From IMG/VR virus record IMGVR_UViG_3300044961_000356: DNA of 44,570 nt; one strand, written 5' to 3'. The position numbers were made by a program, and so were the translations under genes. The notes beneath the pieces are model-generated. The model did not search any database, had not been told where the DNA came from, and worked only from the letters and a program-made list of their open reading frames with translations. This stretch comes from a virus. Shown one piece after another: positions 10,985 through 44,001 of the stretch (within the stretch, counting starts at the first letter, position 1; the number at the start of each line of letters is the position of its first letter).

Positions 10985-11157
10985 TGACCGAAGTATTTAT
11001 TCACGTAAACTGGCCCGAATATAACATTTGCATAAACATTCGATGCCAGCGGGACAAAAACGTTTCGCCCCTTACTCCCGACGATATTGGGGACGCCGTT
11101 TGCGAAACGCTTTACACAATAATTTCAGCTGGAGGTGACCGATGCAGCGTGAATTGA
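10984..11157 (+). CDS. Hypothetical protein (57 aa)
   Basis: ATG 10984 overlaps the upstream TGA; part of track ORF 10960..11157. Confidence 0.45.
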   Translation: MTEVFIHVNWPEYNICINIRCQRDKNVSPLTPDDIGDAVCETLYTIISAGGDRCSVN

Positions 11158-11309
11158 CTATCCGCCTCTCACCTTTATCTCCAGCCCTTGAAGGTAAAAT
11201 TGTGCAGCTCGTCAAGCAAGAGTATAAAATCTTAGACGTAATTAAACAGCGTTTTGGGCAAGAGTCTTATATCTACCTTAAATTGGAGTCCAAAAATGCC
11301 AACTCTTGA
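11142..11309 (+). CDS. Hypothetical protein (55 aa)
   Basis: Manual translation MQRELTIRLSPLSPALEGKIVQLVKQEYKILDVIKQRFGQESYIYLKLESKNANS. GGAGG lies 6 nt upstream. Confidence 0.4.
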   Translation: MQRELTIRLSPLSPALEGKIVQLVKQEYKILDVIKQRFGQESYIYLKLESKNANS

Positions 11310-12060
11310 CCAGCATCAATCCGCAAATTATACTAAAATTCTCTACATGGGAGATAGCGGTAGTGGCAAAACCGGGAGCCTTACATCTTTGCTTGATGCT
11401 GGTTACAGTTTCCGTATTCTTGATATGGACAACGGCCTCGACTCCCTTAAGGCTTTCACCAAGAAAGAGAATTTAAAGCGCGTCATATTTGAAACTGTGC
11501 GTGACAAATATAAGTCTTCAAAAACTGGCCCTAAAGTTGATGGGACACCTAAAGCTTTTGTCAACGCAATGGACATTATGACAGAATGGTCAGAGATTGA
11601 AGACCCCAAGTGTATCTTTGTCCTCGACAGTCTTTCCGCGCTAGGTCGAGCAGCTTTTGCTTGGGCCAGTCACCTTAACCCAACTGCTAGAGACAAGCGG
11701 CAGGTTTATGGTGTCGGCATGAGTGCCGTTGAAGATGTAATCGCTATGCTTACTGGCGATAGCTTTAAAATGAACGTCATCGTTATTACTCACATTAAGT
11801 ATGACGAGGGCGAGGAAGGCACCGGCAAAGGTTTCGCTAATGCTCTCGGCAAGGCACTCGGTCCTATTATCCCGCGCTACTTCAATACCGCTATAATGGC
11901 AGAAAAATCTGGCAGCGGCGATAACATTAAGCGCAAGATTAAAACGATGCCAACTAATCTCGTGGATTTAAAAATCCCTGTTCCCGGCATTCAGAAAGAG
12001 TTTCCTCTCGAGTCAGGCCTGGCACAAATTTTTGCCGCGCTTCGAGGAGAAAAGGGTTAA
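11296..12060 (+). CDS. RecA-like P-loop ATPase (AAA_24 / Sak4-like)
   Basis: Walker A GDSGSGKTG and Walker B IFVLDSLS. Internal ATG 11296 has GGAG 8 nt upstream. It sits next to an exonuclease and an SSB-like gene. Confidence 0.75.
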   Translation: MPTLDQHQSANYTKILYMGDSGSGKTGSLTSLLDAGYSFRILDMDNGLDSLKAFTKKENLKRVIFETVRDKYKSSKTGPKVDGTPKAFVNAMDIMTEWSEIEDPKCIFVLDSLSALGRAAFAWASHLNPTARDKRQVYGVGMSAVEDVIAMLTGDSFKMNVIVITHIKYDEGEEGTGKGFANALGKALGPIIPRYFNTAIMAEKSGSGDNIKRKIKTMPTNLVDLKIPVPGIQKEFPLESGLAQIFAALRGEKG

Positions 12061-12105
12061 TTGGTTCTACCCTGCAGCCAAACGAACCAACCTAGGAGAA
12101 TACAT

Positions 12106-12561
12106 ATGGTTGATTTTGCGAGTATCCTCAACAAGAAGTCGAATGAAATTGAAAAGCCGCCTCTTCCTCCGCAGGGGACTTATCGTTTCAAGATCACCAA
12201 AATTCCCGAGTCTAAGGAAGTTGGTAATGGCGATTGGGATATGCTGAGTATTCCTTGCGTGGCTGTCGAGGCAATGGACAACGTTGATCTCGATGATTAC
12301 AAAGGCGAAGTTACCAGCATTCGTTTGACCAAAACTTTCTTGTTCAACAAGAACGACGAGGTTGAATTTGCTAAGACCGAATACGCCCTCAAGAATTTTC
12401 TTGAGCACCATGTCGCCGTCCTCGAAGAGGGAATGTCTATCGGCGAAGCTATCAATGCTTGCAAGGGCGCTGAATTCTTGGGCGATGTAACCTGGCGCGA
12501 GGACACTCGCGAAGAAGGTGAGTTCCAAGCAAATATCGGACGGACTGCTCCGATCGACTAA
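12106..12561 (+). CDS. DUF669-like putative single-stranded DNA-binding protein
   Basis: N-terminal PPLPPQGTYRFKI pattern, and a position directly after the AAA_24 ATPase. AGGAG upstream of ATG 12106. Confidence 0.55.
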   Translation: MVDFASILNKKSNEIEKPPLPPQGTYRFKITKIPESKEVGNGDWDMLSIPCVAVEAMDNVDLDDYKGEVTSIRLTKTFLFNKNDEVEFAKTEYALKNFLEHHVAVLEEGMSIGEAINACKGAEFLGDVTWREDTREEGEFQANIGRTAPID

Positions 12562-12605
12562 GTTAGTTGAGGAGGTTTTTCGTTCCCTTCCTCCCCAACC
12601 ACACT

Positions 12606-12652
12606 TGCCGCAGGCATCAGTTCACAAGACAAGTTGCCTGCGGCATCTTTTT
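12606..12652 (+). terminator. Rho-independent terminator
   Basis: Perfect 11-bp stem tgccgcaggca / tgcctgcggca, 18-nt loop, then tcttttt. Confidence 0.75.
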
Positions 12653-12663
12653 CGGAGAACTTT

Positions 12664-12843
12664 ATGCCTACACTTGTTTTCACAAAACATGGCTGGCTTA
12701 CTAGCACTTCTCAATACAGCACCGACCGTAAACAGGCTCGTGTATTCGAGTTTCCTCAAGCTGTTGAGGCCTGCACTCGTCTCTACTCTAACGGAGTGAT
12801 TGCAGTTCCTGTTCGTATTACTGATTTAGGGTATATGAAATGA
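12664..12843 (+). CDS. Hypothetical protein (59 aa)
   Basis: Internal ATG of track ORF 12634..12843, downstream of the terminator. The stop overlaps the next ATG. Confidence 0.5.
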   Translation: MPTLVFTKHGWLTSTSQYSTDRKQARVFEFPQAVEACTRLYSNGVIAVPVRITDLGYMK

Positions 12844-14141
12844 CCAGCGCCCGGTTTACAGCATATCCAATTGCTTCAATATTCATTGATCGTGAAGCTC
12901 GTCAGCGAAAAAAGCTTGCTAATATAGACGAGCTCGCAGACAGCATTGCTCGCCTGGGCTTAATCAACCCAATCGTTATTGACGAGAACGGAACTCTTGT
13001 TGCAGGAGAGCGCCGCCTCACCGCTTGTATTCAACTCGGCTGGGATAATATCCCTGTTCAATTTGCAGAAGACCTTGATGAATACACTCTTCAGTGCATC
13101 GAGTTCGAAGAAAACGTAAAGCGTAGTGACCTCGAATGGCAAGAAGAAGTAGCTGCAGTAGCGAGGCTTCACGCGCTAAAAGTAGCAAACGAACCTGACT
13201 GGTCAATTGAAGATACCGCTGACTTGATTGGCAGTAGTAGAAACTATGTTGGCCAACGAATAGCTGTCGCTAAAGCTCTTGATAATCCTACAGTAGCTAA
13301 AGCAGACACATTTAGCACTGCACTCAACATAACCAAGCGCGATGCTGAGCGGAAAAAATCCAACATATTAGACACCATTTCTGGCAGTCTTCCGGGCATC
13401 ACTCAAAATCAACCTACCGATGAAGAATTGGAAAACTGGGATAAGCCACGTCCGGAAAAAATAATCCCTCTAATCAATGAAAGCTTCATTGACTGGCAAG
13501 CAAGTTACAGCGGAACCAAGTTCAACTTAATCCATTGCGACTTTCCTTACGGCATTAACGTAGCAAATGCTCCACGAATGAAAGCTGCAATTACAGATTA
13601 TTACGAGGATAGTCCTGATATATATTGGACGCTCGTTGCTACATTGGCTGGCGCAATGGAGAATGTAGTTGCAGAAAGTGCGCATTTGATTTTTTGGTTC
13701 AGTCCAAAATACTACGCAGACACAAAAGAGTCTTTGCAGCGCATGGGATGGAAAATTGCGGACTACCCGCTTATTTGGCATAAGAGCGATAACACAGGTG
13801 TAGCTCCTGATCCTCAACGTGGCCCTCGCCAAACTTACGAGATGGCGTTTTTCGGTGTGCGCGGTGACAGAAAACTAACTGCAACAGGCACAAAAGCAAA
13901 TAGCTTTGCTCATCCAGGTAAACGCACTGATGCCATCCATGTAAGCGAAAAACCTTGCGCTATGCTCCGACATTTTCTCTCAATGGTTTGTGACGATTAC
14001 AGCTATGTGCTCGATCCAACTTGCGGAAGCGGCAATGCGATTAAAGTAGCCCAGGACCTCGGCGCAAGTAAAGTTCTGGGAATTGAGCAGTTACCTGAAT
14101 TTTACCAAATTGCTTGCGACAACTGGGACCGTCGGACATGA
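12840..14141 (+). CDS. ParB-like nuclease domain fused to an N6-adenine/N4-cytosine DNA methyltransferase (beta class)
   Basis: N-terminal ParB-like segment LGLINPIVIDENGTLVAGERRL, motif IV IHCDFPYG (DPPY-like), and motif I VLDPTCGSGN placed after motif IV. Confidence 0.85.
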   Translation: MTSARFTAYPIASIFIDREARQRKKLANIDELADSIARLGLINPIVIDENGTLVAGERRLTACIQLGWDNIPVQFAEDLDEYTLQCIEFEENVKRSDLEWQEEVAAVARLHALKVANEPDWSIEDTADLIGSSRNYVGQRIAVAKALDNPTVAKADTFSTALNITKRDAERKKSNILDTISGSLPGITQNQPTDEELENWDKPRPEKIIPLINESFIDWQASYSGTKFNLIHCDFPYGINVANAPRMKAAITDYYEDSPDIYWTLVATLAGAMENVVAESAHLIFWFSPKYYADTKESLQRMGWKIADYPLIWHKSDNTGVAPDPQRGPRQTYEMAFFGVRGDRKLTATGTKANSFAHPGKRTDAIHVSEKPCAMLRHFLSMVCDDYSYVLDPTCGSGNAIKVAQDLGASKVLGIEQLPEFYQIACDNWDRRT

Positions 14142-14323
14142 GCACTTATCCAAAGATGCTTGCTGATCGTTTCACTTTGCAGGCAAAAGCGGCGAATATT
14201 TCGCCTCATCGCTTATTGCTTGACGAGTTCACCAGTCTACAGCAAGCCTATTTCGCTGCGTTGAAACTTTTGCTTGAGGAAAAGCCGAATGAAGATTGCA
14301 ATAGTCGGCGAAGCTCCAAGTGA
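14138..14323 (+). CDS. Possible small protein (61 aa)
   Basis: ATGA overlap with the methyltransferase stop; overlaps the next gene by 35 nt. Confidence 0.35.
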   Translation: MSTYPKMLADRFTLQAKAANISPHRLLLDEFTSLQQAYFAALKLLLEEKPNEDCNSRRSSK

Positions 14324-15269
14324 CCAAGACATTGAAGAAGGCCAATTGTTTACTGGAGCAATCGGCTGGCATCTTGACCAAATGCTTAGTGCTGCCGGCA
14401 TTAATCGTCGTGAGTGCCTAGTTACCAGTGTATTCAATCAACGCTTAATTCGCGGAGACGTTAAGAATTTTTGTGGCCCGAAAGGAGAAGCGGCAGAAGG
14501 TTTACCTCCAATATCACGAGGAAAATATCTTCGGCGAGAATATGCCGGAGAAATATCTCGACTACGAGATGAAATTAATTCTGCCGCTCCGAACCTTATT
14601 CTCGCTCTAGGCTCCACTGCTTTATGGGCTTTCAGCGGTGAAATTGGGATACGACAATACCGAGGCGTCACTCGCCTCAGCACCTGCGGAAAAAAACTTC
14701 TTCCAACCTATCACCCAGCCGCAGTTCTGCGTGAGTGGTCGCTTCGTCCAATCGTCATCGCAGATTTTCATAAAGCCGCGGCGCAAGCTGAGTCTCCAGA
14801 CTACAACCCACCTCGGCGACGAATTCATATAGAGCCGACTATTCGCGATTTGCTTTTATTCGAGGAGAAATATTTTGCCAGTGCCGTCAAACTTGCCTGT
14901 GATATTGAAACGAAACAAGAGCAAATTACTTGCATCGGTTTCGCGCCTAACGCTGAAAACGCAATTGTCATTCCATTCTTTCACCATTCCGGCAAGAATT
15001 ACTGGTCGTCAAAGGAAGAAGAGCTCGAAGCCTGGAAGATAATTCGTCGATGGCTCGCCACTTACCCGACTGTGTTCCAAAATGGCATATACGATATGAG
15101 TTTTCTATGGCGAGTTTATGGTATTCCAGCTCCACGTGCGTGTGATGATACAATGCTTTTACATCATGCGCTTCAGCCTGAGCTGAACAAAGGCCTAGGT
15201 TTTCTAGCATCTCTTTACACTGATGAACCCTCATGGAAACAAATGGGCAAAGGACAAAAGCATGATTGA
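14289..15269 (+). CDS. DNA polymerase fragment 1: UDG-family-4-like domain plus the N-terminal part of the 3'-5' exonuclease domain (ExoI, ExoII)
   Basis: VGEAPSDQDIEEGQLFTGAIG and TYHPAAVLR (UDG family 4 motifs A/B). ACDIET (ExoI) and FQNGIYDMSFL (ExoII). GAGGA lies before ATG 14289. Confidence 0.8.
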   Translation: MKIAIVGEAPSDQDIEEGQLFTGAIGWHLDQMLSAAGINRRECLVTSVFNQRLIRGDVKNFCGPKGEAAEGLPPISRGKYLRREYAGEISRLRDEINSAAPNLILALGSTALWAFSGEIGIRQYRGVTRLSTCGKKLLPTYHPAAVLREWSLRPIVIADFHKAAAQAESPDYNPPRRRIHIEPTIRDLLLFEEKYFASAVKLACDIETKQEQITCIGFAPNAENAIVIPFFHHSGKNYWSSKEEELEAWKIIRRWLATYPTVFQNGIYDMSFLWRVYGIPAPRACDDTMLLHHALQPELNKGLGFLASLYTDEPSWKQMGKGQKHD

Positions 15270-15618
15270 TCTTTTTGACAAAGAGCGTAAGTCAGGCCGT
15301 TGGACTGGCTATGACTTTATTGCGCAAGAGGCAAAGCAATTTAAACGTTTACAGCATTTGTCAGATCATGACGTAGCTTTTCGAATGGCTGTTGACCTAA
15401 ATACAGTTCGTAAAATGCGAGCGGCACGAAACCAAATTAATCGTCCGCTTTACAATACAGGGATTGACTACGGGGTGCGGGTTCTGCTCGGCAAACATAA
15501 TATCACAACAACAGGTGAATTGTTCGCCCTATCCGACGATGACATCCTCGCTATTCCCAAGATCGGCAAAGCTCGGCTTGAGCATATTCGTGAAAAGTTG
15601 CGGGAGTTTTTCTCATGA
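15262..15618 (+). CDS. Helix-hairpin-helix protein (RpoA alpha-CTD-like C-terminus), inserted between the polymerase fragments
   Basis: TTGELFALSDDDILAIPKIGKARLEHIREKL. ATG 15262 overlaps the end of fragment 1. Confidence 0.6.
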   Translation: MIDLFDKERKSGRWTGYDFIAQEAKQFKRLQHLSDHDVAFRMAVDLNTVRKMRAARNQINRPLYNTGIDYGVRVLLGKHNITTTGELFALSDDDILAIPKIGKARLEHIREKLREFFS

Positions 15619-15953
15619 TCTATCTTGCCAGCCCTTATACCTCAGACAGTCCTACTACTATGGAGCGCCGATTTCGCCAAGCTGCGGCAGCAACAGCTGC
15701 ACTTATCAATCGAGGCAAGATAATTTACTCCCCTATCTTGCATTTTCATCCGCTCGCAGAACTTTACGACTTGCCAAAAAACTTTGATTTTTGGCGGGAA
15801 GTAAACCTTAATATGCTTTCTCTCGCATCTGAACTTTGGGTGTTAACAATTGAGGGCTGGCGTGAGTCTCACGGTGTGCAAGCAGAAATTGCTTTTGCTC
15901 ATGAACGCAGTATTCCTGTTAACTACATAAGCAGTGAAATCTGGAAAATCTAA
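15615..15953 (+). CDS. DUF1937-like protein (nucleoside 2-deoxyribosyltransferase-like fold family)
   Basis: MIYLASPYTS...IYSPILHFHP...ELWVLTIEGWRESHGVQAEIAFA matches my recollection of the DUF1937 signature. ATGA and TAATG overlaps on both sides. Confidence 0.65.
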   Translation: MIYLASPYTSDSPTTMERRFRQAAAATAALINRGKIIYSPILHFHPLAELYDLPKNFDFWREVNLNMLSLASELWVLTIEGWRESHGVQAEIAFAHERSIPVNYISSEIWKI

Positions 15954-17557
15954 TGCGAGTTATCGACACAATCGAAAGCGATCTTTCAGTCCTTAACGAG
16001 GACGAAAACTATTGGGTTTATAATGGACTTGACAACTGCCTTACGCATGAAATTGACAGCGTGTTGCAAGGGCAGCTTGATGATGTAAGTCGTAATATAT
16101 ACAATCTGTCTCTTGCTTTGCAGGCTCCGGTCCTTGAAATGAACCTGCGCGGTTTACTCGTTAACCAGCGTCGTAAGTATGCTATCGTCAAAGAGTTTGA
16201 AGCGCAGGTCGCTCGTATAGAAGAGCAATTTTATCGCATTGTGCATGAAGGAGTGGGCATGACTCACTTCGACAATTGGCGTTCGCCTACACAAACTAAA
16301 GAGTTGTTTTATGATGTGCTCGATCTTCCTGTGCAAAAGAAGCGAAACGCTAACGGAATATTTATGCCGACTACAGACGAGCAGGCGTTGGAGCGTCTGT
16401 CTATGTATTTCCTCGGCGAGCCTCTAGCAAATCATTTACTCGCATTGCGGGGACTCGGCAAAATGCTTGGTTTTCTTCGAACCAAGATTGACAATGACGG
16501 AAGAATGCGCACGCAGTTTAATATTGCGGGCACCAACACCGGTCGTTTTGCCTCGAGCGAAACAGATTTTGGCACAGGCACAAACTTACAAAATGTAACA
16601 TCTTCTTTGCGGAGCGTATTTATTGCAGACCCTGGCCGCATTCTTTGTAATATTGACTTAGAACAAGCCGACAGCCGAAACATGGGCGCACTGGCTTGGG
16701 AAAAACTTTACGATGCTGATGCGAGTCGTATTACTGATTTACTTGCTCGTCGAGCAAAAAACATTCCACACTGGAACCCTTCGCTTCCTTGGCGCGGTCC
16801 AGTTGGGCCTGAGTTTGCAGGCGCTTATTTAGACGCCTGCGAGTCAGGTGACCTCCACACTACTGTAACTAAGATGGCACAGCCAGATTTGCCCTGGGGT
16901 AGAGGCCAAACTGATCGTGAAGTAGCCGATAAGTTAGCCTTTAAAAATAAATCTCACCGAGATTTATCAAAGGGTATTGGTCACGGCAGCAATTACATGG
17001 GAACCCCACCCACTATTGCTAAACAATCTCGTTTACCAACCGCGCTGGTTAAAGAGTTTCAAGTCAAGTATTTCAACGCATTTCCTTGCATCCCTGCAGT
17101 TCAGCAAATTATCATTGACGAATTGAAGCAGTCAAGTTGCTTAACCACTCCACTTGGTCGCCGTCGATTTTTCTTTGATCGACCTGAAGCTGGCGCTACC
17201 CAACGAGAAGGTGTTGCGTATATGGGGCAGTCTATGACAGCCGATGAATTAAACTACGGCTTGCTTCGTCTCTGGCGCACAGGACTTGTTGAACTTCTTG
17301 TTCAGGTTCATGACAGTATCCTCTTCCAGTTTGACGAACGTCGGATTAATGAAATTTTGCCTGTTGCGTTAGAGGCTTTATCGACCAAAATGACGTTGCG
17401 CGGAGGTCGGATTTTCACTGTCGGCACAGAAGCAATGCTTGGCTGGAATTGGGGATATTATTCGGAGGACAATCCTGACGGACTTCGCAAATGGAAAGGA
17501 GTTGAAACACGTAAGCGCCAAGAAAAATCTTTCAAACTCAGCGTTCAGGATTTGTGA
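15953..17557 (+). CDS. DNA polymerase fragment 2: ExoIII-like motif plus the family-A polymerase domain
   Basis: YNGLDNCL (YxxxD), TGRFASSE...NLQNV, motif A IDLEQADSR, motif B RDLSKGIGHGSNYMG, motif C VQVHDSILF. Confidence 0.9.
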   Translation: MRVIDTIESDLSVLNEDENYWVYNGLDNCLTHEIDSVLQGQLDDVSRNIYNLSLALQAPVLEMNLRGLLVNQRRKYAIVKEFEAQVARIEEQFYRIVHEGVGMTHFDNWRSPTQTKELFYDVLDLPVQKKRNANGIFMPTTDEQALERLSMYFLGEPLANHLLALRGLGKMLGFLRTKIDNDGRMRTQFNIAGTNTGRFASSETDFGTGTNLQNVTSSLRSVFIADPGRILCNIDLEQADSRNMGALAWEKLYDADASRITDLLARRAKNIPHWNPSLPWRGPVGPEFAGAYLDACESGDLHTTVTKMAQPDLPWGRGQTDREVADKLAFKNKSHRDLSKGIGHGSNYMGTPPTIAKQSRLPTALVKEFQVKYFNAFPCIPAVQQIIIDELKQSSCLTTPLGRRRFFFDRPEAGATQREGVAYMGQSMTADELNYGLLRLWRTGLVELLVQVHDSILFQFDERRINEILPVALEALSTKMTLRGGRIFTVGTEAMLGWNWGYYSEDNPDGLRKWKGVETRKRQEKSFKLSVQDL

Positions 17558-18765
17558 TGAAAAGAGCGCTTAAATCTTTTGTTGATGGGTTTGTAGAGTA
17601 TACGGAAGGTCGAGGTTCTCCTCGGCTTTACCGTAAGTGGACAGCAATATTTCTAGTTGCTGCTGCACTTGAACGTAAATGCTGGGTCACTACGACCAAA
17701 GGCCAGTTATTCCCCAACAAATACATCATTTTGACCGGCCCGGCTGGTGTAGGCAAATCCCTTTGCACTCGGCTTGCTCATGACTTGCTTGAAAGTTTGC
17801 GAAGTCCTGAAACACCGTTTCACCTAGCACCAACAAGTGTTACTAAAGCGTCACTTATTGATCGGCTCGCCGAAGCTGAACGCCGCATCATGCGCCCAAT
17901 GGAAGACCCCGCGCTGGTTAAGTTTAATTCCCTCCACATTGTAGCTAATGAATTCGGTGTTTTCCTTCCATCTTGGGAAGCAGAGTTTATGAATACCCTC
18001 ACCGATCTTTGGGATTGCGGACGCTATGCAGAAAGTCGTAGAACAGGTAACACTAATCTCGAAATTCCGTGCACACAGCTAAACCTTTTAAGCGCAACAA
18101 CACCAAGCCAGCTCATAAATTTGCTGCCTGAAGGCGCATGGGAGCAAGGTTTCATGTCAAGAGTTCTTCTTGTCTATTCTGGCGAGACAGATTTTACTGA
18201 TTTATTTGCTACGCTGGACAGTGATGGTAAGTTGTGGGATGCTCTTGTCCGTGACCTTAAATCAGTGTATAAAATGTATGGCGAGTTTTCTGTAGATATT
18301 GAAACGCAGGAAGCATTAAATGAATGGGGCCGAGCTGGCGGCCCACCAATTCCAGATCATCCTCGCTTAATAACATATCGACAGCGACGGATCGCGCATT
18401 TGCTAAAACTGTGCATTATAAGCGCAGCCGCTTGTGATGACGAGCGTATTATTACACTGGAAAATTTTGCAGAAGCACTTGACTGGCTTGTAGAGTTAGA
18501 AAGTGCTATGCCAGATATTTTCAAATCACTGAAGATTGGCGGCAGCGCAAGAGCAATTGAGGAATGCTACGACTTTGTATACCAGCGTTTTCACAAGCTG
18601 GGTAAAAAGCCAGTGCCAGAACATCTTATTGTCGCATTTCTGCAAGAGCGCGTGCCGATCCATGATGTAGATAAAATTCTCGACACCATGGAACGTGCAC
18701 ATTTGCTTGAAAAACAATTTGCAGGTGCAGGTAAAGGCTACGTGCCTATGGTTAAGCAAGAATAA
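17557..18765 (+). CDS. P-loop NTPase, putative SF3-type replicative helicase (DUF3987-like)
   Basis: Walker A GPAGVGKS and Walker B-like LHIVANEFG. It is the last gene of the replication arm and is coupled to the polymerase stop (TGATG). Confidence 0.65.
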   Translation: MKRALKSFVDGFVEYTEGRGSPRLYRKWTAIFLVAAALERKCWVTTTKGQLFPNKYIILTGPAGVGKSLCTRLAHDLLESLRSPETPFHLAPTSVTKASLIDRLAEAERRIMRPMEDPALVKFNSLHIVANEFGVFLPSWEAEFMNTLTDLWDCGRYAESRRTGNTNLEIPCTQLNLLSATTPSQLINLLPEGAWEQGFMSRVLLVYSGETDFTDLFATLDSDGKLWDALVRDLKSVYKMYGEFSVDIETQEALNEWGRAGGPPIPDHPRLITYRQRRIAHLLKLCIISAAACDDERIITLENFAEALDWLVELESAMPDIFKSLKIGGSARAIEECYDFVYQRFHKLGKKPVPEHLIVAFLQERVPIHDVDKILDTMERAHLLEKQFAGAGKGYVPMVKQE

Positions 18766-18767
18766 GT

Positions 18768-19067
18768 TTACTTTGGCTCACACCAGTTTTTGGAGTATCG
18801 AGCACCTTTTCGAACAGCATCTTGGCAAATCAACTTTACTCGACTCCAACCTTCCTCACCCCAGGCTTCAAGCAAGCTTTCATAAAGATTAGCAGCTTGT
18901 TCGCTTGTCAACGTATCAACACTCGGCACAGGTTTTTTAATCGGGCGCACCAGTTCGGCAGGCGGGAAACCCATCAAGATTGGCTCCGGCTGCCCGCAAG
19001 CGCTCACAGTTAAGAGCAATCCGAGAACGGGAAGGCGAAACATCGGGGACTGAAACAATAACTTCAT
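18768..19067 (-). CDS. o-spanin (outer-membrane lipoprotein), overlapping the i-spanin gene
   Basis: MKLLFQSPMFRLPVLGLLLTVSAC with lipobox VSAC, and a Pro-rich mature part. AAGGA SD. The start lies inside the 3' part of the i-spanin gene in another frame. Confidence 0.7.
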   Translation of the reverse strand: MKLLFQSPMFRLPVLGLLLTVSACGQPEPILMGFPPAELVRPIKKPVPSVDTLTSEQAANLYESLLEAWGEEGWSRVKLICQDAVRKGARYSKNWCEPK

Positions 19068-19305
19068 CGCGGCTTTCCTTTCGTTCAGCAATTTTTGCCT
19101 GTGAAATTTCCTTATCTGCAATTGCAATAGCATTGCTTTCTTCGGTGACAATGCGAGCTGCTTCAATCAAACGTGATTGCTTGGCTTCACAGCTATCGTA
19201 ACCATGATTGCGCCCTACAAAGTAAATCGTGCTGGAATAAATAACAACGACTGCCAGCACAATTTTCCAGTTCGTCACAACAGCTTTTATATCAGGCAAT
19301 TTCAT
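18937..19305 (-). CDS. i-spanin (N-terminal TM helix plus a coiled-coil periplasmic domain)
   Basis: TM helix WKIVLAVVVIYSSTIYFV, then a charged helical region. ATGA overlap with the upstream gene. Confidence 0.7.
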   Translation of the reverse strand: MKLPDIKAVVTNWKIVLAVVVIYSSTIYFVGRNHGYDSCEAKQSRLIEAARIVTEESNAIAIADKEISQAKIAERKESRDEVIVSVPDVSPSRSRIALNCERLRAAGANLDGFPACRTGAPD

Positions 19306-19520
19306 TTTTCATCCTCCAGTGTTTGCGGCGCTGTCCGGCTGCCAAGCGCCACATTTTCGATCTTGCTCATAATCTCGCGCACCGAAAGCCAACCCGCCAG
19401 CGTCCAGCCTACGGCCTCGCGCAGCGTCATAGCCTCGTGGTAAGCCATGAAGCCCATCAACCCGAGGATCGCTGCACCAAGCACGCCAAGGATGCGGACG
19501 GCTTCGCGGCGGAGCGTCAC
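19302..19520 (-). CDS. Holin-like small membrane protein (72 aa, GTG start)
   Basis: Hydrophobic segment AVRILGVLGAAILGLMGFMAY plus a second weaker one. It sits between the endolysin and the spanins with GTGA/ATGA overlaps. Confidence 0.6.
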   Translation of the reverse strand: MTLRREAVRILGVLGAAILGLMGFMAYHEAMTLREAVGWTLAGWLSVREIMSKIENVALGSRTAPQTLEDEK

Positions 19521-20158
19521 GATTGTCCTCTATACATACGCGCCTCGGCCTCCCGGCGGCGGATCAGTCCCCGCATCACCTTGCCCCCGGCACGGTTCCA
19601 GCGGACAAACTCAAGTGCCGCTCCTTCATAGTCACCTGCGCGGTGCTTACGAACAAGCGTTGACTTTCGGAACGCTGCGCACCCGATATTGTAGGCCAGC
19701 GAAACCATCGCATCAAACTGGTTTTGTGTCACGGGCGCATCGCCCAGCGCGTCCCGGACTTCCTGCTCAAATTGAACAAGGTGCTTCCGAAACCGCGCAT
19801 CGGCGCGCTCGCGCGTCCATACTGTGCCCGGCTCAATCGGCCTTCCCTGTTCATCTGTGGTGCTGCCCCATCCGATAGTCCACGGCTTGCCACCTGTGCC
19901 GGGGTCAGGATAGGCCTTAAGCCGCAAGCCTTCAAAGCTGTGAATTAAATCGATCCCCGCTTGACTAGTTCGCATGACGGGATGCGTCACTGGGGGCAGA
20001 TCGTTCAACGCAGGCGCCAGCTCGTTCAATGCCTCGTTAGCAGCCTTGATGGTTGGCGCTGTCTTGACCGGCTCGGGCACGGGAAAGTCCCGCTTTGCCA
20101 CGCTGGCATTGCTGACAATTTCCTTAAAGCGGCGAACGAATTTGGACAAAAATTTCAT
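19517..20158 (-). CDS. Endolysin, GH24 (T4/lambda-type) lysozyme with a ~65-aa N-terminal extension
   Basis: IDLIHSFEGLRLKAYPDPGTGGKPWTIGWGST...QFDAMVSLAYNIG...GLIRRREAEARMY. Confidence 0.85.
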   Translation of the reverse strand: MKFLSKFVRRFKEIVSNASVAKRDFPVPEPVKTAPTIKAANEALNELAPALNDLPPVTHPVMRTSQAGIDLIHSFEGLRLKAYPDPGTGGKPWTIGWGSTTDEQGRPIEPGTVWTRERADARFRKHLVQFEQEVRDALGDAPVTQNQFDAMVSLAYNIGCAAFRKSTLVRKHRAGDYEGAALEFVRWNRAGGKVMRGLIRRREAEARMYRGQS

Positions 20159-20439
20159 TTAAAAATCTCCTGCAATGCTTTAATAATAGCAGAAATAGAC
20201 GCGCCAATCGCGCCGCCAGCAAGCCCAACGCCAATCAGAATACCACTTCCTTTATCTTTAAGAGTGGCAAGTTCAGCTTTGTCTTTTTCAAGATCAGTTT
20301 TGATGTCCTTGATGTCTTTGGCCATCGCGTCAATCTTCTCCCGCATTGACTCTCTATCTTCTTGGCGCTGTAAAAGAGCCTGTCCCAGCAGGGTTTCAAT
20401 GCGCGTAAGGCGCTCGGCTTGAGTTAATGGTCTAGTCAT
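20155..20439 (-). CDS. Coiled-coil protein with a C-terminal TM helix (possible holin/antiholin partner)
   Basis: C-terminal GILIGVGLAGGAIGASISAIIKAL. ATGA overlap with the endolysin. GAGG SD. Confidence 0.55.
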   Translation of the reverse strand: MTRPLTQAERLTRIETLLGQALLQRQEDRESMREKIDAMAKDIKDIKTDLEKDKAELATLKDKGSGILIGVGLAGGAIGASISAIIKALQEIFK

Positions 20440-20471
20440 CGTCGCGCCTCAAAATTCTCGCATTGCGCTGC

Positions 20472-23400
20472 CTACGGCTGAACGTCCATCAGGATCAGTT
20501 CATCCAGATTGGTTATGAACATGAACACGCGGTTCACCCCTGTCAGGCTGCGCCGAAGAACAAGTGCTCCGTTGCCATTGAGGCCTACCCATCTGTGCTC
20601 GTTTCCGCTGTAGCGTGGCTTCCATGAAGTCCCTTTGATCTTGGCTGTCTCAAGCAACGTCTCCGGCACGAACCGCTCAAACCTGCGAACCGCAATGGTG
20701 TCGCCTACCAGAACCGTCGCCGGGTTCACCGTGACAATGAAGTCCGGGTCGCGCTGCCACTGCATCAGCCAATCGACCAGCGGCTTGAACCGCAAGCCGG
20801 TCTGGATGCTTTCGCGCCACAGCTTGTTCCCGGGGATGCCGGTCAGAGCCTCAAAGTAGGGCGTGAACGGCCCTTCGAGTTCCTTGAGCGGGTCGATCAG
20901 GCTTTGATCGAAATGCCCAGTCGTGGGGTCGAGATACTCCTCTTTGATGCAGTGCGTCGCGCTGGGAACGCCGGGGTAGTTGGTAACGACCCCTGCCGTA
21001 ATGCCATTCGCTCCGATGTTGTTGTGCGCCCCGGTCAGGGTCCCGCCGCCGATTATCTCGATCTTGTTCGAGATATTCTCTTCACCTGCCCGCGTAGGGA
21101 GCCAGACGTTATTCAGGGTCAGGCTCATCTGCGGAACGTCTACGGAGACCAGCCCCATGACCTGATCGGACTTGTTCGCCAGCAGCCGCTTGAAGTGGTG
21201 AGGGATGGCGGCATAGTTCGTCACGCTGAACATCGTCGGCGCACCAGGGTTGGTGCTGCTCTTGGCCAGCAACTGGTTGCGGAAGCTGCTCATGTGAACG
21301 TGGTTCTCGACTGTCACATTGCCGAAAACTCCGGTGTTCATCTGGAGAAAGACCGGCTGGGTCGGCGAGACGCTGATCCACGACCCGATATAGGTGTTTG
21401 GCAGGTTCACATCCGCAAGGTTTGTTTGAATGCCGTCATGGTGCGTGGCGATGTTGTAAATCGCTGGGCCGCTTCCGTTCGACCAGACGTTGTTCGTCCA
21501 AGTGCCGTAGCGGCAGTAGAGGCGCACCCAAGGTGTCGTAGGGGAGGGCGCAAACTTTTGGGCGATGACAAAAACATCGCCGTCATCCGGAGCGGCTTCG
21601 AGAGTGCCATTCCCAATCAGCATACCATTATAGGCGAACTGGAAATTGGGCCTGTTCTGATTGGCGTTCCCGAAAAACTGCGAGTAGTGGGCGACCATGA
21701 TCCGGCGACCCCGGATAGCCGCTGCCTCGTTCAGCGTGTTGGTGGTGTAATCGTAGACCCCAGCGTGATAAGCCCACAGGCCGCGAGGAAGATCGGCCGC
21801 CGCACTAAGGCCCGCCGCAGTGACGTTCTGCCAGATCGGGCGATTATTGCTGTCCACACTCACCGCGACTTCGATCTCCTTGGTGCTCTGCATCAGGTCC
21901 AGCCTCATGCCGGTTGAGCGCCCAAGGAATACGTTGTTCGTTGAGTAGGTGATCGTTCCGCCGTGCAGGTAAGTGGCATCATTCCATACGCGGTCGAGAT
22001 AGAAGTTTTCTTGGCTCCAGGTGAATGTCCTGCCGGACGGGCCGTTCGGGCTGAGGCCGCGAGGGACCATCTGGCAGGACGAATTATCGACGTTCACGCT
22101 GGAGCCGTTTGGCGCCTCATTCATGTTGATCGTCAGGTAGCCCTGAAAGATCGAGAGCGTCAGGTCGTCCATGTCATCCTGAACCGTGACATTGCGCCGG
22201 TTCCGGGTATGCGTCGGGATCGTGCCAAGCTGGATCGAATGATTGAAGTTGAAGTTCCCTGCCGGGCGCAGCGTATGGGTGTTGCTTGTCCCAAGCTGCG
22301 TCTGCGAAACAAGTTCGCCCTCGTTGCTGCTCAAGGGAAAGATGCAGATGTAATCCATCTTGGTCAGGCCGGTCAGGTTGGTCTGACCAGTCTGCGCTCC
22401 TACAGCATTGAGCAAGCGGCTGATCCAGCCATAAAGCCGAACGTCGTTCTTGAATGCGGAAGTGAGCGTGAAATTGTGCAGGTTCGGGCGAAACCAGCCG
22501 CCAGACGTTGAAGGCAGGCACTCCTGCGTGAAGCGCCCCGGCCCCAAATTCAGCGTATAGTCGTCCACCCGGTTCGAGTTGGCGGCCGTCTGCGGCCCGA
22601 AGTCGTAGCGGTCAGTGCTATTCGGAAGGATGCCATAGGTATCCGTCGTCTCATTGGACGCCACAATCTCGATGCAAGGCACTAGCGGAAACCAGTCGCC
22701 CCCGCTCATGTAGCGGCTGTTGAGCAGCGCCAGCTTGCCATCTGTGATTGCCGTCCGACAGCGAGCGACACCGTGAAACAGCGCACCGATCTTTCCGTCA
22801 ATGTCGGTGTTGATCGTCTCGGCAACAAAGTCCTTGTAGTAAGGCGCGCTCCCGGTTGTCGGGGTGATAAGCTGCGGAGTGCCCGAAGGCGGTGCTTCCA
22901 GATTGTTGCCCGCCGTCCAGTCGTGGATCATCATTTGGACGCCGACTGGGACATTGGCGAGGTTCACGAGAGGAAAGAAGTTTGTCGAGGCTGCAATGCC
23001 GTCGAACTGCGCCCACACCAGCCAAACATCGTTCCCCGCGCTGTCCTGATAGGGCATTTTGGAGACGCCGGTAACGTATTGGCGAGTGGCGTTGATGGCC
23101 GAGGAAATGGTAATCTCACCAGCCGCGTCCACGGCAAAAGACACGCTGCTGGAAGCCCAACCAATTGAGAAGCTCCACGTTGACCCTTTGACAGGCAAGG
23201 AGATAAGCATACTGGTGCGGCACCGATTGCCGAGCGCCGGATTGGCAAAGCCGATGTTATCGGCCCTGATAACGGTGTTAGTCGGGGTGTTCTGGAGGCT
23301 AGTCAGCAGCACGCCCTTCCCGGTGCCGCCGTGAATGTCGGGGCCGCTGTGCTCGCCAGCGTAAGCGCGAGAAATCCAGGACGGTCCATTGTTGAACAGA

Positions 23401-23852
23401 TATGCTGCGTCGGTGTTTGCATGAGGCGCGTCGGTCTTGTGCCACGGCGCGCCGTATATCCGGCGGGCTGGTTCCATGAGCGCACCCGCGTAGACACCAT
23501 TTTGATCGTGAAAGGAGCGCTCTGTATTTCCTGCAATTTGGGACCACGCGCCATTACGACCTCGCTCCCATGCTCCCTCTGTGCTTGTCCAAGTCGCGTG
23601 AGCAGGCAAGTCAATTTTGTCATCAGATGAAAGCAGCTTAAGTAAAACTTTGGTTCCTACTAAAGCTTGTGCTTCAGCTCTAGCCGCCTCGGCTCGGTCC
23701 GCTTCCGCCTGAGCCAAAGCCACTTGTGCCGCACCATTAGCAGTAGCATCACTTGCAGCTTGTTCAGCCGCATCCACAAGAACCTGGACTGCCGCGACAG
23801 TTTCGTCTCGAAGTTCATTTCTCAAGCGCGTAGCAAAAAGAGGAATTGTCAT
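20472..23852 (-). CDS. Large tail fibre / tail spike protein (1126 aa)
   Basis: Track ORF 20472..23870. ATG 23852 overlaps the upstream stop (TAATG). Ala-rich coiled N-terminus, and the last and largest virion gene. GC is about 60% over 20472-23600. Confidence 0.7.
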   Translation of the reverse strand: MTIPLFATRLRNELRDETVAAVQVLVDAAEQAASDATANGAAQVALAQAEADRAEAARAEAQALVGTKVLLKLLSSDDKIDLPAHATWTSTEGAWERGRNGAWSQIAGNTERSFHDQNGVYAGALMEPARRIYGAPWHKTDAPHANTDAAYLFNNGPSWISRAYAGEHSGPDIHGGTGKGVLLTSLQNTPTNTVIRADNIGFANPALGNRCRTSMLISLPVKGSTWSFSIGWASSSVSFAVDAAGEITISSAINATRQYVTGVSKMPYQDSAGNDVWLVWAQFDGIAASTNFFPLVNLANVPVGVQMMIHDWTAGNNLEAPPSGTPQLITPTTGSAPYYKDFVAETINTDIDGKIGALFHGVARCRTAITDGKLALLNSRYMSGGDWFPLVPCIEIVASNETTDTYGILPNSTDRYDFGPQTAANSNRVDDYTLNLGPGRFTQECLPSTSGGWFRPNLHNFTLTSAFKNDVRLYGWISRLLNAVGAQTGQTNLTGLTKMDYICIFPLSSNEGELVSQTQLGTSNTHTLRPAGNFNFNHSIQLGTIPTHTRNRRNVTVQDDMDDLTLSIFQGYLTINMNEAPNGSSVNVDNSSCQMVPRGLSPNGPSGRTFTWSQENFYLDRVWNDATYLHGGTITYSTNNVFLGRSTGMRLDLMQSTKEIEVAVSVDSNNRPIWQNVTAAGLSAAADLPRGLWAYHAGVYDYTTNTLNEAAAIRGRRIMVAHYSQFFGNANQNRPNFQFAYNGMLIGNGTLEAAPDDGDVFVIAQKFAPSPTTPWVRLYCRYGTWTNNVWSNGSGPAIYNIATHHDGIQTNLADVNLPNTYIGSWISVSPTQPVFLQMNTGVFGNVTVENHVHMSSFRNQLLAKSSTNPGAPTMFSVTNYAAIPHHFKRLLANKSDQVMGLVSVDVPQMSLTLNNVWLPTRAGEENISNKIEIIGGGTLTGAHNNIGANGITAGVVTNYPGVPSATHCIKEEYLDPTTGHFDQSLIDPLKELEGPFTPYFEALTGIPGNKLWRESIQTGLRFKPLVDWLMQWQRDPDFIVTVNPATVLVGDTIAVRRFERFVPETLLETAKIKGTSWKPRYSGNEHRWVGLNGNGALVLRRSLTGVNRVFMFITNLDELILMDVQP

Positions 23853-24211
23853 TACAGAACCTCGTTCCAAATAAGTGTGATAGTTATTTCTTTTACGGCA
23901 GTTGCGTTTGTTGCGTCAGTAACAGTAACTCTCCACACGGCAATTTCTGGAGCAAGCTCATTTACAATAGCACTCCAAGTCGGATTAGCTATTCCAGTAA
24001 ATGTAGGTTCAACAATCATTGATCCGCTTACATAAGCCCAGTTGTAAGTGAACGGAGAAGTTCCTCCAATTGGTGTAGTATTTGGAAGTTGAGTAGTAGT
24101 TACTAAACCACTACTGCTGCGTCCAAATTGAGCTCGAGTAACATCATTCGCCAGAACAGAAAATTCTGAAGAAGATACCGTTCCTACAAGAGCAGTTAAA
24201 ATTCCACTCAT
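23852..24211 (-). CDS. Hypothetical tail-fibre-associated protein (119 aa)
   Basis: ORF track; coupled on both sides between the two fibre genes. Confidence 0.55.
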   Translation of the reverse strand: MSGILTALVGTVSSSEFSVLANDVTRAQFGRSSSGLVTTTQLPNTTPIGGTSPFTYNWAYVSGSMIVEPTFTGIANPTWSAIVNELAPEIAVWRVTVTDATNATAVKEITITLIWNEVL

Positions 24212-42629: not shown

Positions 42630-43203
42630 GTTCAATGATCGCCTGTGATGCTTGGCGCTGAGCAAGACGAACCCGCGCTTGTTCTAGTCTCGAGGCAATC
42701 CCGACATTAACGTTTACATTCTGGCTAGTTTGTGGACCGTAACCAGTTCGGTCCGCGCCTAGCTTCGTAATTTCAAGCAATTGCCCAATGCTAATCGACT
42801 TTTCTTCCGACTGCATATCCTCCTCAAGTCTTGCATGAAGTTCTTCAGCCGCATCGCGAGAAAGTCCAGCCAAACGCTCATGCATATCCCTATAGACTCG
42901 ATTTGTGTTTTCACGATAGAGGGCAAGCAGTTCTTTAAACGCTGGATCAGATTTTAAAACACTAACCCGGCTAATCACGTAACCGCAAGCAAGTGCCGCG
43001 TCACCATCGCTCATGCCGGAAGCGAGGCAACGAGCTAGTGCGTGGTGTCGATCTCCGAGCCTTTTAAGCGGCGGCGGCCGACTACCTTTTTCGGCGGCAA
43101 GAAGTTCCATATCGGAAGCTTCTAATTGCCGCACTTCCGCCGCAACAATCCGGCGCCCGGCTCGTCCAACAGTCCGGAATGGTATGTCAAGGGGCTGGCT
43201 CAT
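42622..43203 (-). CDS. terS: Terminase small subunit (HTH-containing)
   Basis: HTH-like LARCLASGMSDGDAALACGYVISRVSVL. It lies immediately upstream of terL and is the first gene of the late arm. Confidence 0.6.
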   Translation of the reverse strand: MSQPLDIPFRTVGRAGRRIVAAEVRQLEASDMELLAAEKGSRPPPLKRLGDRHHALARCLASGMSDGDAALACGYVISRVSVLKSDPAFKELLALYRENTNRVYRDMHERLAGLSRDAAEELHARLEEDMQSEEKSISIGQLLEITKLGADRTGYGPQTSQNVNVNVGIASRLEQARVRLAQRQASQAIIEHD

Positions 43204-43209
43204 GCGCCA

Positions 43210-43238
43210 ACTATATCACGACCTACAGGGGTTGGCAA
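43210..43238 (-). promoter_or_regulatory. Strong sigma70-like promoter of the late arm (TTGCCA - 17 bp - TGa TATAGT), 6 nt from the terS ATG
   Basis: The minus strand reads ttgccaacccctgtaggtcgtgatatagttggcgcATG. There is no SD, and the predicted start site coincides with the A of the ATG. Confidence 0.55.
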
Positions 43239-43250
43239 TAGTGGGTATCG

Positions 43251-43258
43251 GAGCCATA
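43251..43258 (-). repeat. TATGGCTC core motif copy in the divergent promoter region
   Basis: The plus strand reads gagccata. It lies about 13 nt upstream of the -35 of the late promoter. Confidence 0.5.
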
Positions 43259-43409
43259 TAGGTGCTCAGCCACAAAATTTGGTGGGGTGTAAGTATAGGC
43301 CGGGCCCCCTCCCCTCCGCCAAAATACCCCTAGGGCCTCACGTCAATTTCGCGCATCCGTTCATGCAGCTCGGCTGAAATATGAACAAAAAATTTTTCTT
43401 TTCGATGGG

Positions 43410-43438
43410 TTGACATTGCGGGCGAGTTGTGGGAATAA
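43410..43438 (+). promoter_or_regulatory. sigma70-like promoter (TTGACA - 17 bp - TGg GAATAA)
   Basis: Consensus -35 at 43410-43415, extended -10 TG, and about 48 nt upstream of ATG 43486, which has an AGGAG SD. Confidence 0.5.
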
Positions 43439-43485
43439 AAATGCATCCGGCGCAATGGTGCGGCGGACTACATTAGGAGTCTAAT

Positions 43486-44001
43486 ATGTCGATTACCATC
43501 AACCTTCCCGCCTCGCAGACAGTCTATAAGGGACCGCGCGACAAGTCATGGGCTGCCTCGGTTACGATTGACGTGACCAAGCTTTCCGCGGATATCGTCG
43601 CCCATCTCGCGATGCATGGCCTTAAGCAAAAGCTCGCTGACGCCGCGAGCCAATACAAAACGCTCGACGAGGCTCAGGCCGCCATGGACAAGGCGGCGGA
43701 CGCTCTGCTCGCCGGGCAATGGACACACCGAACTTCGGGTGGTGCGGGTCTGACCGAACGCGACAAGGTCGCGCGCATCATCGTGGGCGAATGGTTCCGC
43801 TCCATTTTCGCCAAGAACAATCCGAAGCACGCCAAGGTCAAGGCATACAAGGAGGCGGATGCGGCGGGCCGCGCGGCAATCCTCGATGAAATCTTCGCGG
43901 ACAACGAGGACATCTTTGCGGACGAGGTGGAAGCGGAAATGGCCGCGCGCAAGGCCAAGGCTGAAAAGCTCGGCGCGGTCAAGGTCACAATCAAGGCTTG
44001 A
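43486..44001 (+). CDS. Hypothetical early protein (171 aa), Ala/Lys-rich
   Basis: ORF track; AGGAG 7 nt upstream; GC-rich. Confidence 0.65.
   Translation: MSITINLPASQTVYKGPRDKSWAASVTIDVTKLSADIVAHLAMHGLKQKLADAASQYKTLDEAQAAMDKAADALLAGQWTHRTSGGAGLTERDKVARIIVGEWFRSIFAKNNPKHAKVKAYKEADAAGRAAILDEIFADNEDIFADEVEAEMAARKAKAEKLGAVKVTIKA

Follow-up and report, generated by a model that had tools for sequence, protein, structure and literature searches.

A probable ancient fission of a phage UDG-PolA-type DNA polymerase inside its proofreading exonuclease domain

Introduction

Replicative DNA polymerases encoded by two separate genes have been described in phages for both family A (PolA) and family B (PolB). 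The present work concerns a further split PolA, found in the IMG/VR virus record IMGVR_UViG_3300044961_000356, a stretch of 44,570 nucleotides (nt) that is designated here, over its whole length, as the window. The polymerase is carried by two open reading frames (ORF), ORF1 and ORF4, and the small genes ORF2 and ORF3 are placed between them.

The PolA that contain an N-terminal domain similar to uracil-DNA glycosylase (UDG), named UDG-PolAs, and the separation of the 3'-5' exonuclease (exo) and polymerase (pol) genes in the S-SBP1-like T7-like cyanophages were reported together, and the latter was termed the first fission in PolAs (Czernecki et al. 2023, NAR, PMC10201439). AlphaFold predicts that the two S-SBP1-like halves come together again in the canonical fold and that their new termini face the solvent (PMC10201439). 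In PolB, an example is the pair gp43A/gp43B from the T4-related Aeromonas phages 25 and 44RR (Petrov et al. 2010, reviewed in PMC2988022). The gp43A and gp43B halves of phage 25 co-purify and are active, and the reviewers considered that the endonuclease may have entered a gene that was already split (PMC2988022). A split DNA polymerase is also present in the OM43 phages MEP401 and MEP402 (PMC10580990). The literature search on DUF1937 in connection with polymerases, on the paper of Caulobacter phage Kuura and on virioplankton PolA returned no description of the particular split found in the window.

The locus probably derives from an ancient fission of a replicative polymerase of the UDG-PolA type, in which the products of ORF1 and ORF4 are two subunits with a shared proofreading site and ORF2 and ORF3 are passengers. 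The split form extends over a very large set of uncultured phages. This reading is based on the identical position of the cut in all the loci compared, the variable genes in the gap, the invariant catalytic residues and a Klenow-like model of the joined halves.

Results

One family A polymerase encoded in two pieces

A single PHROG 17 profile (DNA polymerase) covers both halves of the enzyme. Its positions 480-789 match ORF1 (E 2.5e-23) and its positions 804-1238 match ORF4 (E 4.6e-47). Judged by this profile, ORF1 and ORF4 are contiguous halves of one protein family, the match being far above chance. In the window, the stop codon of ORF1 (15267-15269) and 683 nt of other genes separate them.

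The first half begins with the UDG-like domain. Pfam UDG (PF03167) matches amino acids (aa) 2-152 of ORF1 (E 2.9e-19), and the same region matches the family-4 UDG structures 1l9g, 1vk2 and 1ui0 in the PDB (E 2e-11 to 1e-9). The presence of this N-terminal domain places the enzyme among the UDG-PolAs, although UDG, exo and pol are not on one polypeptide here as they are in the described N4-like and SPO1/SP-10-type members. The domain (aa 1-157, 14289-14760 of the window) shows GEAPS where GE(A/G)PG is expected and keeps the HPA of the HP(A/S) motif, and Ser47 replaces the Asn of family-4 UDGs, which is kept by 210 of 270 relatives. In this particular phage the UDG-like domain may be inactive.

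The exonuclease domain starts in ORF1 and ends in ORF4. Pfam DNA_pol_A_exo1 matches ORF1 at aa 200-314, a region containing ExoI (D205-I-E207-T, nt 14901-14909) and ExoII (N265-G-I-Y-D269, nt 15081-15095). The catalytic D205, E207 and D269 are invariant in 270/270 ORF1-family sequences. An ExoIII motif is absent from ORF1, as is the final helix of the DnaQ-like fold. This helix is retained in ORF4, which carries ExoIII as Y23-N-G-L-D27 (nt 16019-16033), with Y23 and D27 kept in 119/119 ORF4-family sequences. All three motifs of a DnaQ-like exonuclease are present and invariant, spread over ORF1 (I and II) and ORF4 (III). Given this invariance on both sides, one proofreading site would still be assembled from both chains.

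The rest of ORF4 corresponds to the polymerase domain. It matches Pfam DNA_pol_A (PF00476; E 1.7e-28, 100 bits with a cut-off of 34.3) and the large fragments of Pol I in the PDB (E 1e-15). Motif A (D235/E237), motif B (R336/K340/H344/Y348) and motif C (H453/D454) are conserved in 119-120 of 120 sequences. By its motifs A (DxE), B (Rx3Kx7Y) and C (HD), the window enzyme is a family A DNA polymerase.

Motif B of ORF4 (aa 336-348, 16958-16996) reads R336-x3-K340-x3-H344-x3-Y348 (RDLSKGIGHGSNY). The histidine occupies the position equivalent to Klenow F762 and T7 Y526, the site of dideoxynucleotide (ddNTP) discrimination, at which the described PolA groups have F, Y or L. The motif B 'GHG' is conserved in the split clade as well as in a sister clade with fused proteins. 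One ORF4 homologue of the split clade (P0152) contains a LAGLIDADG intein of ~287 aa exactly in motif B (GHG|C...N|SNY), and another ORF4 homologue (P0221, 804 aa) has an extra segment of similar size; L022:7363-9792 probably belongs with them. These proteins indicate that the polymerase genes of the split clade are also targeted by classical mobile elements.

The same cut in the related loci

The survey of IMG/VR gave 443 relatives of ORF1. The best 80 of these 443 were retrieved, and 76 loci could be scored for both halves. The polymerase is cut at the same site in 76/76 of these viral loci. The ORF1 homologues end in '...KHD*' or '...TIKK(D/E)(D/E)*' and the ORF4 homologues begin with 'M(R/K/A)x(I/V)I(D/N/Q)T'. 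Every locus keeps the two genes adjacent and in this order.

The closest deposited phage is the Caulobacter phage Kuura (OQ067476), with 37% identity for ORF1 and 34% for ORF4. Its architecture is the same: Kuura_029 (annotated as 'hypothetical'), two small genes and Kuura_026 ('DNA polymerase'). The small intervening genes of Kuura show no similarity to ORF2 or ORF3.

The lengths of the relatives point in the same direction. The best 120 clusters of ORF1 at 90% identity measure 289-348 aa, and the best 150 cluster representatives at 50% identity measure 254-397 aa, with a single one of 512 aa. At this latter level, 1131 ORF1 representatives reach E<=1e-30. The top matches of ORF4 are nearly all of 502-534 aa, apart from fragments and two proteins that bear an intein or an insertion of intein size.

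Uninterrupted versions were found only at ~30-35% identity. These fused relatives have 779 aa in MW202489, 810 aa in Microcystis phage Mel-JY34, 826 aa in a Desulfofustis phage and 859 aa in vir526, and the large fused sister clade has 774-795 aa. The genomes of the four named relatives are syntenic and of ~40-44 kb. A ParB-methylase gene lies upstream of the polymerase in Mel-JY34 and the Desulfofustis phage and is also a neighbour in MW202554, and Mel-JY34, the Desulfofustis phage and vir526 have a DUF3987 primase gene on the downstream side.

Other break positions also occur. They represent independent fissions. The related UDG-PolA of MW202554 (L087, 1228-3865) is broken at the exo/pol boundary, past ExoIII. 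In the Vibrio phage VS-ABTNL-3 (L002, MF497422, 2873-6007) the split is inside the pol domain, with an ORF of 184 aa between the pieces. Since these two phages and the OM43 phages MEP401/402 are split at other sites, fission has taken place more than once in the wider group. Among 185,579 species-representative genomes, the only ORF1-family matches were two contigs assigned to Terasakiella sp. (a metagenome-assembled genome (MAG) contig of 47.2 kb, L088) and Scandinavium sp. (48.2 kb, L089), which are probably phage genomes binned into MAGs rather than prophages and do not point to a host.

The bare interruption of the gene could by itself suggest an insertion that disrupted it recently, a pseudogene or an error in the assembly of this contig. 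This explanation is refuted by the survey of the related loci, and its probability is negligible: the same architecture recurs in 76 viral contigs, in an isolated phage and in at least 150 clusters at 50% identity, and both halves are intact and strongly conserved.

Position of the break

In the alignment with the fused relatives, ORF1 ends just past the conserved '...GLGFLASLYTDEPSWK', and ORF4 starts ~22 residues ahead of the ExoIII 'W-YNGLD'. The break falls in the loop between '...SLYTDEPSWK' and 'W-YNGLD', which is variable in the fused proteins. The fused relatives align straight through the break, and the split forms carry only ~10 extra residues. Neither direct repeats nor ends of mobile elements were found flanking ORF2 and ORF3; the only feature is one weak inverted repeat of 18 nt.

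A single chain could in principle be restored by a group I intron, an intein or split intein, a programmed frameshift or readthrough. Introns and inteins are frequent in phage polymerase genes, the intein of P0152 being an example within this clade, 'fractured genes' with split inteins are known (PMC2677866), and in four loci the stop codon is followed by an in-frame ATG. However, the Rfam search by E-value of positions 14000-18000 matched no intron family, and the interval is filled by two conserved protein-coding genes. Pfam detected no intein domain in ORF1 or ORF4, and the break has neither a Cys/Ser/Thr +1 residue nor an HN signature of splicing. As the termini align onto the fused homologues with only ~10 additional residues, there is no room for intein halves. 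Moreover, the relative frame of the two halves varies from locus to locus (-4, -1, 0 or +2 nt, or hundreds of nt of coding genes), so that no common recoding mechanism can join them. Restoration of a single chain is therefore very improbable.

A first-pass annotation of the window, made from its sequence alone, had proposed one family A polymerase in two pieces, with ExoI and ExoII in ORF1 and ExoIII and motifs A-C in ORF4. The ORF positions and these assignments are borne out by Pfam and by conservation, and the contiguity on PHROG 17 agrees with a single enzyme. The UDG-like domain at the start of ORF1 had been overlooked in this annotation. It had further held that the exonuclease site needs both polypeptides, and that an ORF1 with its own ExoIII next to an ORF4 devoid of exonuclease residues would speak for two separate enzymes. 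The opposite was found: the cut lies between ExoII and ExoIII and the YNGLD of ORF4 is invariant, which argues for a site built from both polypeptides. Its view that the split is not a recent disruptive insertion stood in 76/76 loci and in Kuura, and the lack of intein or intron hallmarks that it had noticed was upheld by the alignment to fused relatives and by Rfam. The survey of contiguous versus split versions that it suggested gave a split form in every scored locus and contiguous forms only among the distant relatives.

Model of the joined halves

For the structural prediction by AlphaFold2, ORF1 was joined to ORF4 as a single chain, with a multiple sequence alignment (MSA) of 137 rows containing fused homologues and both halves. 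The model has a predicted local distance difference test (pLDDT) score of 90.4 and a predicted template modelling (pTM) score of 0.84. A prediction on the concatenated ORF1+ORF4 as a single sequence reached a pLDDT of 33.6 and was not used. Foldseek aligns the model over the entire Klenow and Bst large fragments (8oo6_A, 1xwl, 1kfs_A), with TM scores of 0.70-0.72 by target and a probability of 1.00, and the model also spans whole single-chain viral PolAs, N4-like ones included. The UDG-like domain is predicted with a pLDDT above 90. The ExoIII helix corresponds to model residues 342-367 (ORF4 16-41; pLDDT ~90), and a short beta-strand is predicted for the conserved 'xIIDT' (ORF4 residues 2-5). 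Since the query columns 283-326 were left unaligned in the MSA, the model gives no contacts at the break itself. The paired MSA of the exo region, used as a profile against the PDB, had a weak match to ExnV1 (7r0t; E 6e-4) and to no other structure, Klenow included.

The two genes might alternatively encode independent products that no longer associate, namely a free-standing UDG-like or degenerate nuclease protein and a polymerase without proofreading. They are separate cistrons, up to 1.6 kb apart in some relatives, and PolAs without exonuclease activity exist, Taq being an example. On the other hand, the invariance of ExoI, ExoII and ExoIII in hundreds of diverged sequences is unexpected for a site that is never assembled. 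The last helix of the DnaQ-like fold is kept by ORF4 and not by ORF1, the order and adjacency of the genes hold in every locus, and the joined model is predicted to reproduce the full Klenow architecture. Independent enzymes are thus an improbable explanation, and two subunits of one polymerase remain the favoured reading.

Variable genes in the gap

The distance between the halves in the 76 loci ranges from -4 to 1628 nt. The halves abut directly in 15 loci (ATGA, TAATG or TAAATG), are separated by <=300 nt in 8, by 300-700 nt in 33 and by >700 nt in 20. The ORFs of the gap form about 43 sequence clusters, including DUF1937, the ORF2 family, DUF7768, proteins similar to nucleoside 2-deoxyribosyltransferases (NDT), MazG/PRA-PH-like pyrophosphohydrolases, HNH_3, methyltransferase-like proteins and many orphans. 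DUF1937 is in the gap of about half of the loci by tblastn, and of 23 loci by the stricter ORF clustering. Near-identical polymerases may have unlike gaps: L034, L037 and L038 have no insert, whereas L029/L030 and L035/L036 carry different ORFs of ~80 aa.

Genes for HNH_3 homing endonucleases are in the gap of 3/76 loci (L033:1548-1985, L061:8183-8659 and L075:7008-7604); the window has none between the halves, where the split phage genes of the gp43A/B and nrdA-mobE type have a free-standing one. These genes may hint at the way in which the slot was invaded, or at the origin of the fission itself.

ORF2 has a helix-hairpin-helix (HhH) domain similar to the C-terminal domain of the RNA polymerase alpha subunit (alpha-CTD) at aa 76-115 (Pfam RNA_pol_A_CTD/HhH, E 6e-6, 26.3 bits with a cut-off of 23.8; PDB alpha-CTD, E 0.02). 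Its N-terminal module of ~60 aa, similar to a helix-turn-helix (HTH), stands alone as proteins of 61-90 aa in 9 other loci that belong to the 'KHD' subclade. Counting the window, the ORF2 family is present in 16/76 loci, always starting in the overlap with the ORF1 stop, and the full HhH form in 7/76 (the window and 6 close relatives). None of the 50,697 deposited phage records had a match to ORF2. From these features, ORF2 is probably a lineage-specific DNA-binding passenger, which could act as a regulator or an accessory factor. As for its start, position 15262 is favoured over the longer ORF from 15223, because the 15 homologues all begin at the ORF1 stop overlap.

ORF3 matches DUF1937 (E 1.5e-16), PHROG 355 ('nucleoside 2-deoxyribosyltransferase') and the PDB structure 1t1j (E 1e-9). 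Its homologues in jumbo Caulobacter phages, Vibrio phages and others occupy unrelated positions. Judged by its matches, ORF3 is a widespread, free-standing accessory gene of phages.

The first-pass annotation had identified both proteins correctly, as well as the junction overlaps. Two of its other proposals did not hold. It had described the polymerase as broken by ORF2 and ORF3, and the same break is found elsewhere with different genes or with none, in the 76 loci and in Kuura alike. It had also suggested the HhH protein as a bridging or processivity subunit. In such a role, ORF2 would hold the halves together or confer processivity, with ORF3 as one more subunit. In its favour, each of the four genes overlaps its neighbour, the alpha-CTD-like domain is of a DNA-binding type, and an ORF2-family protein begins at the ORF1 stop in the loci counted above. 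Nevertheless, in fifteen relatives the halves follow each other without a gene in between, the two genes of Kuura are unrelated, and the slot is occupied by the many unrelated clusters already listed. L005, with a polymerase 79% identical to that of the window, lacks the DUF1937 gene, and ORF3 homologues are placed at unrelated sites in unrelated phages. With the HhH form limited to so few loci, ORF2 cannot be the general means of holding the halves together. A function of the two small proteins as polymerase subunits is accordingly quite improbable, and the reading of ORF2 and ORF3 as passengers of a split polymerase is preferred.

Organization of the locus

The four ORFs are tightly packed on the same strand (Table 1). 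The start of ORF2 sits within the last codons of ORF1, the overlap being ATGATTGA, and the following overlaps are ATGA (ORF2/ORF3) and TAATG (ORF3/ORF4). The scan for promoters and terminators in 11000-19500 gave no signal exceeding the shuffled expectation. The C-terminal tail of ORF1, ...KGQKHD, is conserved.

Table 1. Genes at the split polymerase locus of the window.
Feature	Position	Strand	Description
ParB-N + DNA methyltransferase fusion gene	12840..14141	+	Upstream of ORF1; Pfam ParB_N, N6_N4_Mtase
ORF1, putative polymerase subunit 1	14289..15269	+	326 aa; UDG-like domain and N-terminal two-thirds of the 3'-5' exonuclease domain
ORF2, putative passenger gene 1	15262..15618	+	118 aa; HTH-like module and alpha-CTD-like helix-hairpin-helix
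ORF3, putative passenger gene 2	15615..15953	+	112 aa; DUF1937, nucleoside 2-deoxyribosyltransferase-like fold
ORF4, putative polymerase subunit 2	15953..17557	+	534 aa; conserved N-terminal strand (MRVIDT), ExoIII helix, complete polymerase domain
DUF3987 primase/helicase-like gene	17554..18765	+	Directly abuts ORF4; Pfam DUF3987, PHROG 14296 E 1e-43

The two outer junctions behave differently across the relatives. From the ParB-methyltransferase gene to ORF1 the distance varies (0-947 nt across 49 loci), and the junction of ORF4 with the DUF3987 primase is tight in 62/64 loci. Given that the ParB-methyltransferase/ORF1 junction is variable too, the junction inside the polymerase is not a unique hotspot and resembles an ordinary slot for accessory genes.

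In many relatives (for example L026, L032 and L074) the conserved last codons of the ORF1 homologue, AAGAAGGAGGAyTGA (K-K-E-D-stop), form a perfect Shine-Dalgarno sequence for the next gene. In the subclade of the window, the K-H-D codons (AAGCATGAyTGA) include its ATG.

The base composition of the window is uneven. The G+C content is 54-58% at 19000-24000, 1000-3000 and 43000-44000 versus ~45% in the remaining window, and the 19-24 kb block holds a minus-strand ORF of 1132 aa (20472-23870). This contrast suggests that part of the genome is of mosaic origin.

Discussion

Course of the fission

The observations can be arranged in a simple scheme. An old fission probably cut the polymerase gene at a site corresponding to a surface loop of the 3'-5' exonuclease domain, with the ExoIII helix ~20-25 residues further downstream. 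ORF1 supplies the UDG-like domain with ExoI and ExoII, and ORF4 supplies the ExoIII helix (Tyr23, Asp27) on a whole polymerase domain. Both chains, produced and possibly co-translated from one same-strand gene block, would associate without a covalent link to give a Klenow-like enzyme, with a proofreading site formed in trans. Such a reassembly is supported by the prediction for the S-SBP1-like halves (PMC10201439) and by the co-purification of gp43A and gp43B (PMC2988022). After the split, the junction would have become an ordinary boundary between genes, at which small accessory genes are gained, lost and swapped. The cargo is often related to nucleotide metabolism (DUF1937, DUF7768, NDT-like, MazG-like), with occasional homing endonuclease genes. 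In the window, the slot is occupied by a DNA-binding HTH+HhH protein and a DUF1937 protein, probably as passengers and not as parts of the polymerase.

Several points weigh against this scheme. The binding of the two polypeptides to each other and an active proofreading are steps that we infer. The AlphaFold2 model is an artificial single chain, in which residues 283-326 of ORF1 have a pLDDT <50. The ORF2-family module stands directly after ORF1 in about a fifth of the loci (16/76) and may have a lineage-specific role with the polymerase. Finally, the variability of the ParB-methyltransferase/ORF1 junction implies that the junction of the polymerase is not uniquely special.

A more far-reaching idea is that the proofreading site assembled in trans is obligatory and was kept for so long because it is useful. 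Proofreading and UDG-like editing could be tuned or switched through the stoichiometry or the exchange of the subunits, or the coupled slot could serve to express the cargo together with the replicase. This idea is tentative and rather doubtful. If true, the slot would be a translationally coupled and replication-timed site for genes of the nucleotide pool and of DNA modification (DUF1937/NDT-like, MazG-like, methyltransferases), joined in the lineage of the window by an HTH+HhH DNA-binding factor.

Significance

Under the scheme of an ancient fission, the locus would represent a second, independent fission of a family A replicase, much older than the case of 2023 and a fixed trait of no fewer than 150 clusters at 50% identity. 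Two polypeptides would contribute the catalytic carboxylates of a single active site. The break is a natural split point, validated by evolution, for the engineering of two-piece PolA enzymes. It also offers a test case for the way in which split active sites are held together, the candidates being the conserved tail of ORF1 and the extra N-terminal strand of ORF4. In addition, the junction of a split essential gene seems to act like any boundary between phage genes and to gather accessory genes. The split matters for annotation as well: in the databases the first half is labelled 'hypothetical protein' (Kuura_029) or 'uracil-DNA glycosylase' (JGI names).

Comparison with known split polymerases

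The S-SBP1-like polymerases share with the window a family A phage replicase placed in two adjacent genes of the same strand, resulting from fission and not from recoding. They belong to the T7-like cluster, lack the UDG domain and were described as a recent event, whereas the window enzyme is a UDG-PolA. Its closest relatives are the UDG-PolAs of the ~40-44 kb ParB-methyltransferase/DUF3987 phages, outside the T7-like cluster (the thioredoxin-binding-domain lineage). In the S-SBP1-like phages, exo and pol are separated as whole domains and the genes overlap with nothing in between. In the window, on the contrary, the cut falls one helix short of the end of the exonuclease domain and leaves ExoIII in the second gene, ~22 residues downstream of the break. 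This split, common to sequences of 34% identity, is old, and 1-4 unrelated genes usually stand at its junction.

The UDG-PolAs of the N4-like cluster #17 and of the SPO1/SP-10 type (PMC10201439) have the same succession of a family-4 UDG-like domain, the 3'-5' exo domain and PolA. These are single polypeptides, and the clade of the window is not placed in the clusters of that paper.

MEP401/402 and VS-ABTNL-3 (MF497422) are ~43 kb podophages with a family A polymerase in two ORFs and a small ORF of unknown function in between. Their break is inside the pol domain (exo and N-terminal pol in one part, C-terminal pol in the other) and not in the exonuclease domain.

By analogy, the closest parallel for a split polymerase with differing inserts at the junction is gp43A/gp43B, also a replicative polymerase in two cistrons whose junction varies by phage (a seg homing endonuclease or an untranslated spacer). 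This pair differs in being of family B, in another phage group, with another position of the break and few known lineages, and homing endonucleases are a minority of the inserts in the group of the window. In relation to the known fissions, the new elements are the lineage (UDG-PolA), the position within the exonuclease domain, the age and breadth of the split and its variable cargo.

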